Positions 46,301 to 52,414 of a DNA stretch of 64,000 nucleotides are shown here, piece by piece. Below the pieces are notes generated by a model. It was not told the origin of the DNA. It saw nothing but the letters and a program-made list of their open reading frames with translations, and did not search any database. The stretch comes from Pocillopora damicornis (Eukaryota), in the NCBI RefSeq assembly GCF_003704095.1, contig NW_020845515.1, positions 62,001 to 126,000 of the forward strand, read 5' to 3'. How positions within the stretch are numbered: the stretch's first letter is position 1; each line of letters starts with the position of its first letter. The position numbers and the translations under genes are program-made.

Positions 46301-48922
46301 AAAGACGCGAGTTGAAGAAAAATTATTTCGCTGCGTTTCCTCTGATCACCGTTTCTGGAGTGATAGAGACTGGCTTAGAAAACAAACAGCAAACAGACGC
46401 ATCCGTTCTAAAATCAGTCGATTCAATCTTTTTACAGTATGAATTTTTAGCGCAAACCTCAGTTCGCGTAACAATTTCAAATTCCAAGTTATGATACACG
46501 ATGTCTCTCCACTTAAGTTATAAACACAACAACTTTCTTTTTCATTTTATTTTCAGTCCAGTTTGTTATTTATAACAAACCGCTGCTTAAAAGATTTGGC
46601 TTAACAATGGATCGCGTGCAGATTAGTATCGCGCGCAATTTACAACATAATTAAAATTGAATGAGCGATGACAAGCAACAAAAAATACAAAAGAATTTTT
46701 CATCCTCAGAAAAAAAAAAAAAGAAAAAAGAAAAGATAGTAAAGACAAAGAGCCAAGACCTTAGATTAAAAAAATAAATCATGCAAGCTCTGTTCGAGAT
46801 TAGATCAACCTTTAAATTACTAAAGAACGAAAATGTTCTATAGAAAAATCAACTTATCTGGAGTAGTAAATGTCGCCTTACATGTGACGGGCAATACAAC
46901 TAATGGCAATAACTCAACTACACTCCCGAAATTTTATCCCAACAAACTTTAACTACAACTGTATATACTTGAAGTCAAACTCAAAGCAAGAAAAAGGTGA
47001 CACTTTTAAGGATCCTGATTATCATTACAACACATATCAGAATAATGAATGTTCACAGAAAACGTGTGGCGGGGTTCATCAAAAAGACCAAAGAGGATCT
47101 CCTTCATCGTCGCCTTCAAGTCTAACAGAGACAATGGCCATTAAGTCCATAAAATATGAAAATAAAAGCTACTGACTGTCACCTTGGTAGGAATCTACGT
47201 AACGAGTAAAATCATTGAGTTTAAAGGCGCACGGTCGCTAAAAAAAATCTGTTATCGACTCCTGAATATTTACAGTTTTAAGTTACATCGCACTATAGTC
47301 ACGGTTTTTTTGCCATCAAACCTTCACTTATGACAGTGGGCTAAAAGTGTTGAGTTCGCCCATTTGTGGAGTGGAAGAAATTTAGGTAAGAAGGAAAAGT
47401 CATTTTCAAATTCGCATGGAGATACTTCAAAAATTATTTTGACAAAGTAGGTTTTTTTCCCCTCTAAGTTTAGCGGAGTTTCAAAGCCCTGACCGTCTCC
47501 AGCAAGCTGGGATTTTTTATAAACTACAGTGTTGTTTTTATTCAGCGCGAAATTTGGGAACAAACCTGGATGCTTATCCGTAATTGATAAAAAATTTACC
47601 ACGGGTAAAACGTACGCTTATGGAAAATAGGGGTGGATAATGCCTAGTAATACGACTCATTCAAGATCTTCCTGTTTACGTTTGGTGTGGATCTCTGCTA
47701 CTTTAGCGCACATTAACCCATACAAATGGTCCTTGTGAAGTTTTCCGTATTGGCTAATCTTATTCTCACGGTAAAGTTATCCTTGCATAAAATACCGTGT
47801 TTATAAATGAAACATAAGTGTTAAAAACTTGTCCAAGAATGAATAATTCTGCGATTGAATGACATAATGAGATGGAACAAAGTGAACGAAAACATACTTC
47901 GAATATTTAATTACCTAGCGAAGTTTGTCGTCAATAGTTGTCATTGTTTATTTCGCTACAATGAAAACATTTTTTCATGTCTTTAAAAAGAAAAAAAGAT
48001 AGACACCTTAAAAAACAGTGTTATCGCGTGGGAAAATGTTCCTCTGTTGAAAGCGGAACTGCGACCCAAAAATAGCTCTTACTTCATTAAAATCTTTCCG
48101 CCTTTACTAATTTCGAGGAAAGCCGCCACATCGGTCCCCCATTTCGTTAGACAATGAGGTTAAAAGTCTGCGCATGAGTAAACGTTAAGGAAGTCCAGGC
48201 TATGAGACCCAAGTTGCCTTGCACGAGTTACAGACACGGTCACGGTGTTTTAAAATATAAAGCTCAAAATTAAATGTTAAATCAACAGCGAGCGAAATCA
48301 AACAAGCTTTGCGTTCAAGTCTCAAGTTTTCCTTTTTCGATTGTTTTCGTTCAAAGCTATCTATGAACGTTTAAATTTGTTACGCGTATTTTCCGTGAAA
48401 GCTGCTGCTTCTTATGATTCCATTTATTATTTTGCGCGGGAAATTGGCGCACGGCCGGCAAAAAAATTGATCCCCTTACGCGTGCCCGGCATAGCAAGGC
48501 GAGTGAATACGACATGTTAAGAAGGAAAGCATTTCGCTTTTCTTGTCTCTTGCTGTATATTGCTTGCTCACCGTTTCAATCGTCCTCACTATGAACCTAA
48601 TACAGGTGCAATGCACTTAAATTCTCAGACGCAAAATACAAGTTTCCTCCAAGGGTGTCAGACAAACTTGGCCCTCTCTCTCTCTCCCTCCCAATCTTCC
48701 CACCAAATGAGTCCAATTTGGGTTTTAAACCATTTTGAGGTGGAACAAAAGAAAGTATTATTCGACCAGTTACTTGTTGGCAACGACATGAGCTTATGAG
48801 AACATCAAACATTCAACGCATGATTTTTTTCTTTCAGAATTTTTTATTGGCGAGTGGAGCGTTTCGGCGAGAGAAAAGATTTCCATTATTCATTGTATGG
48901 ATATAAAAACTACATATAAGCT

Positions 48923-51900
48923 TTAGCTACTATTATCAGAAAATAATTTTCTCATTTGAACACAAAAGTGATACAGAGGAAATCCCATGACATTGAAGTA
49001 GTCGCCATGTATAGACTTGACCAGTGTGCCACCAATTCCCTGAATACCATATTTAACTGATGTTAAGGAAAACAGTGAGATTTTCAAAGCACATGCACCG
49101 AGCAATTTTCGACAGTGTCGAAAGCATCCCAGTATAGCTTTGGTTTTTACTTCAATACGCTTTGTGATTGGTCAAGAAAAAACTCTCACCAACCTCTGTA
49201 AAAACTAAAGCCAATCGTAACTTAGTCACTCGCGCTTTCCCGTGCTGAAGGAATCTTGCCTGTTTTAACATTTATTTCTTATTGGCCGCGAAAATCAATG
49301 AAGAAAATAGTACAAATAAAACACGGAAAGTTTCAAATTTACTCTGATAGAAGAAAAATGGAGTGGCCTTAGTCCCAGAGGCAGGGCTTCTGGGTTGCAA
49401 GACTCAGAGCCTCAGCGACTCAAACACCCAGCCTCCTATCTAACGAGCGGGGAAAGAAAAAGAAAGAAAACGGCCCGTTCTAGCCCTTAGTTTTGGTGCA
49501 ACGCCAATCTTCTTCACTGGCTCGCCAACAAAACAAGGACTGCTATATAAACAGTCCTATATAAACAGTCTGAGAGCACATGCGCAAGGATCTGTGCCCT
49601 GTTATTATTATTACAGTATATTCAAGGATATGATCCGGCCTTGTCCCTGAGAAGAAAAAAAAACCTTTGTGGAAACTTTCAAAGCTGAAGACGGACCGAG
49701 ACCGAGGCATTGCCTCGCTGCAGGTTCACCCCCAACTTATTTTACTACACATGATGGCAAGTTCGCCTGAAAAAATCTGTTGCCTCGTTTCCTTATGGCA
49801 AAACAGTTTCTTTATCACCAAATTAGCAAGCATTTGATGCAGGTGAAAAATTTACACATACATGAATACATACAGTTAAATCTAAAAATTAAAACAAAAA
49901 ACAAAAAAAAAACAGACAAATTCACCAAGAACTCACATTGGCTCTCCAGTTGCAATATATGCCTGGATCACTTCATCTGTTAATGTTCCAAATGACACCA
50001 ATGTCTCCTCATAAAACTGGGTTATGCAGGGTTCTTTAAGCCAATAAAAGACAAGAAGTTAATTTTCTCATAAGGTACTAATCTGCTCAACTATCTTAAG
50101 ATTAAATTCATCTATCAACAACTTCCTGAAAATCACTCCAAGAGGAGAAATTTAGTTAATTAGTTTAATTCTATATTCAATATTATGTTAATGAATTTAC
50201 TTCCGATCAGTCTATGATTATGAAAAGAGGATTAAAATTTGATGCAGTTTAGCAAGTTTAATTTTGACTGTTTCAGGAAGTTTTTGCATTTTGATTTCCA
50301 TTTGAAGAATACCCCACACTCCACATGGACCTCACTGATCCTCAGGAATGGTGCAAGACAACTAAAATGGAGAATTTGGTCTTGGATCTGGTTAACCCTT
50401 TAACTCCCAAGATCTCATTTGTATTTCTCCTTACTGTCAGCCATACAATTCATATGATGTAAGTTTGGAGAATTTGGAATTGGATCAACTAATAATCCCC
50501 TAATTGATATTTTTCTCTATTCTCTTTACTTGTCTGCTTGATATTGTACTTATAGCATAAGGAGAAATTCTGTCTTGGTCACTAGTGGGACTTATAGGGT
50601 TAAACTCCTTCTACGTTCAAATTTTTTATTTTTTTTGCCATTATGTAAGGGCCTTTTCCTCTTTTAAAAACATTTTTGTTGGGAAGCGAGCCCCAAGATT
50701 TTGAGTCAAAAGCCGCAAAGGGGAAATGAACAATTTTGGATAGCCTTACCCATGAAACAACTATCACAGTGCCACACTACTATAGTGATATATTTCACAG
50801 ATAATTGTATAAATACCTTTGGCACCCTCTCTTTGTAAAAGAGTAACCCCACTGAATACTGCATGATCCTTACCACTCAAACTGAAAAAATATGCCCATA
50901 CAGTTGTTATGAAAATACCACCACAAGATCAGAAAAATCAAGTTGGATCAGTAGATGCACCTACACATGTCTTTGAGTGCTTATTATGTTAAATGTAAAC
51001 ACAAATGTTAAGTATTCTTCATGCTTATTTCACATAAACATTTGACATGTACGCCAAATTTTCCATGTGGAGGAGAAGTGGAAAGTTTTTTAAAAGTCTG
51101 ACACACATTGATTTTATTTGATTTTCAAACAGCTCTACATTTACACAGAGAAATAAAAAGATTTGCAGCTTAAGACTAATGCACATCCATTTAAACCCAG
51201 ACCTCCTGTGGGGCACCTCAGACAAGAAAATAATCATGAACTTATTCACCTTTTTAACATTGAATATGCATTTTCCTTGTCTTTTGGTTTTTCAAGAATA
51301 ACTTCATCTAAGACCTGCCAATGCAAAAAAGTTATTGATGCAATTATGGTTTTCAAGAAAAAGAAGACTATGGGATGTACCTAATGTGCTGATGGAAGAG
51401 TAACTAAAAACCATCATTCCTTCCTGATGCAGATTTTTCTGCAAATAGTCCTTCAAGAAAAATTGACATAAATGTAAGCTCTACTTACAACAACCGTATC
51501 AGATCCAATGATCAAGGTGAGTTTATCACTCTGGAAAGTAAGCAAATCTTAATTAACCCTTTGACAAGCATTAAGTTTCTCCGTAAAATGTCGCCCCAAA
51601 ATCACTGCTTAAAGTCAAGAGTATAAAGAAAATGATCACCAACTAGTGAAGCTCTTGATTGTGAAGCAAATTCTCCTTTCCAGTACATTAGGAAATATAT
51701 ATAGAGCAGTAAGGAGAATATGCATACTGACATTAGGGTGTAAAGGGTTAAGGGATAGCCAAGAGCAACTCTAGTTTCCTGGGCACCTCTGATTTATTTT
51801 TTATCTCGAAAAACACACAAATCACACAGGAGTCAATTTTTTTATCAACAGAGCAGTTTTACTGAAAATGAAACTCGCTACTGCAAATGAATTGAATAAC

Positions 51901-52414
51901 AAGCATTTCTTAGTAACTTTATAGTGTTACTTTTTTTATCCCCAGCTAAATTGCATGGGAAGGGTCTGGTAAAAATCACTAAAATCAATGATTAAGAAAT
52001 TAATTAAAAGATTGACCTTATTATGGATCGACATAGGATATCTTAAAAGTTCTTCTCCAGTGACCTCCAGTAGAGCCAAAATATTACATTTAAGGCACTT
52101 ACCTTATTGACTCGCCCAGCCACCTCTAGTGCTTTTTGTCTCGAATTCTCCAAGACATATTCAAAAGGATACTTAAAAGCGGTTTTGTCAAGTGTTTCTT
52201 CAAATCTGGATGGAACAACTTCAAACTTCAAGCCCTGAATTTCGAATAGGAAAATCTATGAGGAATTTATCGCTCACTACAACAAAAATATATCTAAACC
52301 TTGCAAGAATACTCAAAATTTTACAATTTTTCGCAGGATCTCGCATCTCCTCGGTGAACTACTCGCTAGAATGACTCTTTGCGCGGATAAAACCTCTAAA
52401 AGTGGCTCCAACAT
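48923..52414 (-). CDS. Maf-family nucleoside triphosphate (dTTP/UTP) pyrophosphatase; homolog of the ASMTL N-terminal domain, no methyltransferase domain
   Basis: Exons 52325-52414, 52103-52234, 51489-51530, 51250-51314, 50817-50881, 49937-50033, 49632-49646, 48923-49052. Motifs: [61 protein letters not shown]. Confidence 0.92.
49053..49631 (-). other. U12-type (minor spliceosome) intron with AT-AA termini
   Basis: 5' end ATATCCTTG at 49631. Branch site TTCCTTAAC at 49062-49070, followed by 9 nt to the junction. Removing this intron restores DKAGS|YGIQG. Confidence 0.85.
50396..50599. mobile_element. TTAA-flanked piggyBac-type MITE
   Basis: TTAA|CCCTTTAACTCCC...GGGACTTATAGGG|TTAA. Near-identical to 3462-3664. 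Confidence 0.8.
51557..51747. mobile_element. TTAA-flanked piggyBac-type MITE (different subfamily)
   Basis: TTAA|CCCTTTGAC...GTAAAGGG|TTAA. The 3' half matches 1427-1510. Confidence 0.75.

Follow-up and report, generated by a model that had tools for sequence, protein, structure and literature searches.

An eight-exon Maf-family gene

The window, the whole 64,000-nt stretch of Pocillopora damicornis DNA that was analysed, carries on its minus strand a Maf/ASMTL-like gene of eight exons, with six GT-AG introns and one AT-AA intron. The translation of the eight-exon model is identical to RefSeq XP_027045318.1 of P. damicornis (P0124). Exon 1 (52325–52414) contributes 90 coding nt from the ATG, with the RNA joint 52233–52324 present in 3 of 4 runs, while exons 2 (132 nt, 52103–52234), 3 (42 nt, 51489–51530), 4 (65 nt, 51250–51314) and 5 (65 nt, 50817–50881) are given by the same model and by RNA contigs. 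Exon 6 (97 nt, 49937–50033), again found in both, ends within the Met codon of EPM, with GT next. Intron 6 (290 nt, 49647–49936) is a major-type GT-AG intron in phase 2 with a T-rich tract, and its position is identical in the orthologous loci L034, L039, L023 and L043. Exon 7 is a micro-exon of only 15 nt (49632–49646), encoding DKAG plus parts of the flanking codons; the sequence-only reading of this stretch had placed it there, after a GT-AG intron, and all of its coordinates hold in the RefSeq model and in RNA contigs. It is followed by intron 7 (579 nt, 49053–49631), the last intron of the coding region, which is in phase 2, of U12 type and has AT-AA ends according to the sequence, the model and the RNA contigs. 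The coding part of exon 8 (48923–49052) comprises 130 nt including the stop and holds Gln173, the YhdE-type specificity residue. An AATAAA at 48843–48848 is the likely polyadenylation signal; RNA contigs, which cannot prove an RNA end, stop at 48836–48850. In a search of the whole genome, exon 8 has a single match, which is also the sole Maf match there.

The protein matches the Pfam Maf family (PF02545) with 208.7 bits against a cut-off of 27 (E 7.8e-62; scored on P0124, which is identical to the window model), and its closest solved relative is the Maf domain of human ASMTL (PDB 2p5x, E 4.5e-66). Motif assignment against PMC3899018 and alignments finds the S-R-E-K-D-K signature (S18, R23, E42, K64, D85, and K97) as well as the R-T-Q residues of the YhdE subfamily (R22, T86, and Q173). 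The product is thus a predicted nucleotide-cleaning enzyme of the Maf family, YhdE subfamily, which would make it a dTTP/UTP pyrophosphatase, and it differs from human ASMTL in being a stand-alone Maf domain of 211 aa.

Several further features of the gene were noted. Two high-copy repeats, 50392–50604 in intron 5 and 51650–51760 in intron 2, are matched by thousands of unrelated RNA contigs and are likely small mobile elements. One spliced contig of run X20 begins within intron 2 (51487–51732), and some database isoforms (P0002 and P0004) carry an alternative N-terminus as well, which joins at exon 2. The Nematostella model EDO28856.1 (P0144) ends at EEPM, as expected on running into an intron at the intron 6 position, which suggests the same exon boundary in sea anemones.

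The micro-exon and the AT-AA intron

Intron 7 begins with ATATCCTT (49631–49624, minus strand), which matches the U12-type donor consensus RTATCCTT and can form five pairs with the 5′ end of this genome's own U11. Near its other end lies the U12-type branch site TTCCTTAAC (49070–49062, minus strand), with 11 contiguous predicted pairs with the genome's U12 and a putative branch A at 49063. Judged by base composition only, a donor would fall by chance at the site required by protein homology with probability 3e-5, and the branch 9-mer would fall within 10 allowed offsets with probability 6e-5. The intron ends AA at 49054–49053, with the branch A 10 nt from the last base (11 counting the A). Both signals had been recognized in the sequence-only reading and both stand at these positions. 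Its claim that a polypyrimidine tract is lacking holds between branch site and acceptor, but not for the last 20 nt as a whole, which are 70% pyrimidine owing to the pyrimidine-rich branch region. On these signals, intron 7 is likely to be excised by the minor (U12) spliceosome. A second perfect TTCCTTAAC at 48184–48192 (minus strand), 1.4 kb below the donor, was considered as an alternative branch site and rejected; it lies beyond the point where the RNA contigs stop, is unsupported and is probably there by chance.

To place the junction, we compared 8 of 24 runs, five of RNA (X15, X16, X17, X19, and X20) and three of DNA type (X8, X13, and X14), from seven studies; the evidence consists of assembled contigs, not raw reads, in which rare forms are dropped and which give no usable levels. 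Exon 6, the micro-exon and exon 8 (at 49052) are joined in four of the five RNA runs and three of the four RNA studies (X15, X16, X19, and X20), bearing out the predicted junction, and this joint is absent among the joints listed for X17. Taken alone, the RNA lets the intron 7 junction slide by up to 4 nt, because ATAT begins both intron 7 and exon 8. The junction is fixed at 49053/49052 by the donor consensus and by the orthologous locus L034, in which the exon starts with G and no slide is possible.

No skipping of the micro-exon is found among the joints listed in the five RNA runs, in contigs from which rare forms are dropped. The micro-exon would be constitutive, because to skip it a major donor would have to be spliced to a minor acceptor; such joining has been reported with mutant U12 (PMC8329584), so that skipping is possible. 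The contigs of X16, X17, and X19 break exactly at 49628 and 49646, which, from assembly-graph logic only, is consistent with introns 6 and 7 being removable in either order. One X17 contig has 11 extra letters ahead of the micro-exon. Within intron 7, 49137–49250 is a short dispersed repeat with a 14-nt inverted pair (49137–49150 and 49198–49211), X14, X15, and X16 have a 13-nt insertion near 49194, and 49543–49570 is a 14-nt tandem duplication of which X19 is without one copy.

In a trial of 35 acceptor positions (49070–49036), EPMDKAGSYGIQG is obtained from 49053 only. The nearby AG (49057–49058, minus strand) gives an immediate stop if used, as had been claimed and as translation confirms, and it had been proposed to serve as an alternative acceptor whose stop-containing mRNA regulates the gene. 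A database prediction for P. meandrina (P0003) does use an AG there, but to do so it needs a false exon and disrupts the conserved motif. Among the joints listed in the five RNA runs none leads to this AG (rare forms again being dropped from contigs), it lies only 6 nt from the branch A, and it is not conserved, being absent in all nine coral-like orthologues described below. We consider this proposal very unlikely. The acceptor would instead be set by distance from the branch A, the last base being secondary; an AG at +6 would therefore be too close, and +10 would be used whatever base follows the penultimate A. The optimum branch-to-acceptor distance has been given as 11–13 nt (PMC3584512).

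Retention of intron 7 would read SYP and then stop, and database models often fail at this point. Of 37 cnidarian-like database proteins, a sample taken from protein searches and open to bias, 26 give the correct motif and 11 go astray at the intron 7 junction, although some of the latter may be real retained isoforms. The submitter's P. damicornis model RMX44903.1 stops at SYP. Mis-modelling by gene predictors, as anticipated from the sequence, is thus seen in 11 of the 37 proteins, RMX44903.1 and P0003 among them, but the RefSeq model is right. Two Porites models (P0129 and P0131) read SYPFIKC and then GIGG, that is, a GT within the minor intron joined to an AG within the last exon, which reflects either a mistaken prediction or cryptic splicing of the major type. 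The corrected junction matters in practice, and some of the mis-modelled proteins lose a substrate-specificity residue.

The last base of intron 7 in Pocillopora and other corals

On the minus strand, 49053 is A in six of the eight runs and six of the seven studies, including all three DNA-type runs (X8, X13, and X14) and RNA runs X17, X19, and X20. It is G in the other two of the five RNA runs, X15 and X16, which belong to one study and are RNA only, and C is found in none of the eight (all in contigs). The sequence-only reading had named AC at this place as the outcome that would make this an ordinary AT-AC U12 intron; in independent contig data the base is A or G and never C, which, as far as contigs can show, rules that out. 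A broader version of this doubt is that AA is an assembly error or that the junction is truly shifted, leaving an ordinary AT-AC or some other intron. The 4-nt slide tolerated by the RNA and the AC end of most coral orthologues would be in keeping with it, but A recurs in six independent runs from six studies with C in none, the P. meandrina model has Lys at this place, and shifted versions lose the donor consensus and misfit L034. The probability of such an error is negligible.

The G in X15 and X16 lies in an intron haplotype about 1% different from the window, and the spliced junction in these runs is identical despite the G; spliced RNA cannot be phased to the G variant. Because it is an A-to-G difference on the sense strand, present in two of the five RNA runs and in none of the three DNA-type runs, it could reflect A-to-I editing of the pre-mRNA, which would turn AT-AA into AT-AG in the absence of any genetic variant. 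However, the two runs come from the same study and share private changes that are not sense A to G (49202 and 49786), the three other RNA runs have A, no inverted repeat lies over 49053, the base is predicted unpaired (probability 0.01), and sense A-to-G changes are not in excess in X15 (T>C 8, A>G 11). Editing is decidedly unlikely, and the G would be either an allele within the species or that of a close congener.

Orthologues were collected by scanning metagenome contigs for a branch-like motif 6–15 nt before YGIQ, which gave 43 loci; because the pattern required a U12-like branch site, orthologues with a lost or converted intron could not appear. Thirty-two loci were dropped as intronless prokaryote-type Maf genes or chance matches, and the remaining 11 are spliced animal orthologues, nine of them coral-like, plus L023 and L043. 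All nine coral-like loci have TTCCTTAAC, the 10-nt spacing from branch A to the end and the penultimate A, in a scan that required a branch-like core. Eight of the nine end in AC (L007, L025, L017, L035, L039, L031, L034, and L038), forming about five distinct haplotype groups. The ninth, L016, ends in AT and is 98.4% identical over 1540 nt to the AC-ending L025; this T variant rests on one contig, with the donor outside the record. The 15-nt exon and an invariant ATATCCTT are present in all five coral-like loci that reach far enough upstream, and in all seven orthologous loci extending to the micro-exon, its length is 15 nt. The comparison within cnidarians thus shows micro-exon, donor, branch site, and spacing kept while the ends differ. 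In L023 and L043, the same 15-nt exon is followed by a GTATCC donor, a CCTTGAC branch site and an AG end, making the intron GT-AG. Among named matches, the one closest to L023 by identity comes from the sponge Geodia barretti (78% over 93% of 40 aa), and a tapeworm protein with 58% identity scores higher; we regard the two loci, both distant, as tentatively sponge-like.

Database proteins extend this picture. In all four that read through the intron (P0007, P0011, P0012, and P0013), Thr stands before YGIQ, which implies an AC end; the C-termini of P0011, P0012, and P0013 match Montipora and Acropora. In the P. meandrina model P0003, the residue before YGIQ is Lys, which implies an AA end. Among corals, this intron is therefore seen with A, G, C, or T as its last base, while donor, branch site, penultimate A, and spacing stay constant. 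The sequence-only reading had missed this variation. Given eight of nine loci and four of four read-through proteins, AC would be ancestral in stony corals; AA would have arisen before P. damicornis and P. meandrina split, and AG later, in one haplotype.

These data also bear on the suggestion that the AT-AA end is a tuned regulatory valve, in which the slowness of minor splicing caps the level of active Maf enzyme and the retained form gives a truncated protein. Contigs cover intron 7 in all five RNA runs, in one piece in X15, X16, and X20, and a single contig spans introns 6 and 7 in X15 and X20; an intron covered unspliced in every RNA run leaves room for regulation. Proteins ending in SYP or SYPFIK are present in Stylophora and Porites records (P0121, P0127, P0128, and P0132), and these include RefSeq isoforms and a Logan contig with its frame across all upstream junctions. 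Retention would drop Gln173, a residue of YhdE-type base recognition (PMC3899018), together with the C-terminal dimer region, and both a rate-limiting model (PMC3584512) and high basal retention of A-type introns (PMC8280824) are in print. However, retention-type records also come from Porites and Stylophora, where the last base is unseen, and so give no link between retention and AA. Several runs cover introns 6 and 2 as well (cover of introns 4 and 5 is slight, from which nothing can be concluded), parts of the gene cannot be ranked by contig depth, and the last base varies freely among relatives, as a tuned element would not. Tuning of this kind is improbable. Slow removal of intron 7 would rather let part of the RNA stay unspliced, and its product, 171 aa long, would lack Gln173 and the dimer strand; we read this as a by-product. 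As intron 7 is the last coding intron, junction-dependent decay of the retained form would not be expected.

The minor spliceosome of the coral and known minor introns

The genome contains snRNA genes for the minor spliceosome, with U12 (100 bits), U11 (92.7), and U6atac (104.6) above Rfam cut-offs and U4atac (52.2) just under its cut-off of 53; U4atac is predicted to pair with U6atac at -38 kcal/mol. A weak second U12-like match (L046, G000:C280:116032-116196) scores 41.4 bits, below the cut-off, and is possibly a pseudogene or U2-related. U6atac has a sole match (L047:1501-1625, G000:C1986:362277-362401, minus strand), in which GCCGA replaces the AAGGA donor-pairing box, and this CC variant is predicted to pair poorly with the intron 7 donor. 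A CC-variant U6atac has been published for cnidarians, sponges, and Trichoplax and is said there to fit the donor poorly (PMC2396436); the GCCGA is the same here, and there is nothing new in the RNA itself. We rejected the ideas that the GCCGA is an assembly error, a pseudogene, or a discovery, as the gene is in one copy, pairs with U4atac and is a variant already in print. Pattern scans of prokaryote and viral contigs gave no further GCCGA U6atac copies, and a genome-wide pattern count of short AT-AN introns gave one match compared to four in the control. Intron 7 could serve as a substrate for studying how the CC-variant U6atac recognizes donors.

Our preferred reading is that a 15-nt exon is followed by an AT-AA intron that the minor spliceosome likely excises and whose last base has likely drifted, nearly neutrally, from an ancestral AC; we hold this reading to be very probable. 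By established U12 biology, U11 would read the donor and U12 the branch site, and both are constant where the last base is not. AT-AG is disfavoured according to a review (PMC3584512), which means that the change of the last base may not be neutral. A stronger reading is that the coral minor spliceosome, working with a CC-variant U6atac, is insensitive to which base ends an AT-AN intron, and that intron 7 is a subtype switch in progress, in which AC gave way to AA, and AA to an AG allele that is spliced correctly, now segregates in Pocillopora and would need a single donor change to become the sponge-like GT-AG. This we regard as a doubtful proposition; if it were true, living alleles would test the viability of AT-AG as an intermediate directly. 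Near-neutral drift from AC remains our preferred account. If the AG is a genomic allele, the splicing cost of the last base would be measurable in wild colonies, and the allele would bear on AT-AC/GT-AG interconversion and on the neutral evolution of minor-intron ends.

To judge how unusual the intron is, we compared it with published minor introns. Non-canonical ends account for about 4% of conserved minor introns, and in animals and plants AT-AA is the one most often found among them (PMC10639083); the coral intron therefore belongs to a known class. The sequence-only reading was right about the AT-AA ends and overstated the surprise in calling them a rare variant. Three such introns are counted in human, four in mouse, and one in Arabidopsis (PMC1557818, Tables 2-3), and the AT-AN class, together with raised basal retention of A-type introns, has been described (PMC8280824). 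The human gene is no listed minor-intron gene, as ASMTL is missing from the human and mouse minor-intron lists in the supplements of PMC6717393, in which the control XPO4 is present. Its absence from the supplements of PMC8280824 (part of the files), PMC7367187 (2,790 characters), and PMC7507305 (where the control is also absent) is uninformative. Full-text searches gave no paper pairing ASMTL with a minor intron, or Pocillopora with the minor spliceosome, and further literature searches turned up nothing on intron 7 or on a last base that segregates, although genome-wide minor-intron tables covering thousands of species may list it.

The closest known parallels are the human AT-AA U12 introns of RASGRP4 and MSH3 (PMC1557818; PMC10639083; PMC8280824), which share with intron 7 the ATATCCTT donor, the TTCCTTAAC branch site, the short spacing and the AT-AA ends; the coral intron differs in sitting after a 15-nt exon. 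The last base varies between species in known cases as well, with MSH3 being AT-AA in human and AT-AC in mouse, and IK being AT-AT in human and AT-AA in mouse; over half of non-canonical ends differ between these two species (PMC1557818). In that source, however, the known cases are pairwise human–mouse differences, whereas the coral intron has four last bases, with two pairs about 1–2% apart, in addition to GT-AG in distant animals. AT-AG has been proposed as the intermediate of subtype switching from AT-AC to GT-AG (PMC1557818); the AC, AG, and GT-AG states are all found at the coral intron position, but the coral route would include AA. What stands out is that one and the same intron shows each of the four possible terminal bases within a set of close relatives, which makes it a natural counterpart of the mutagenesis series behind the AT-AN class.
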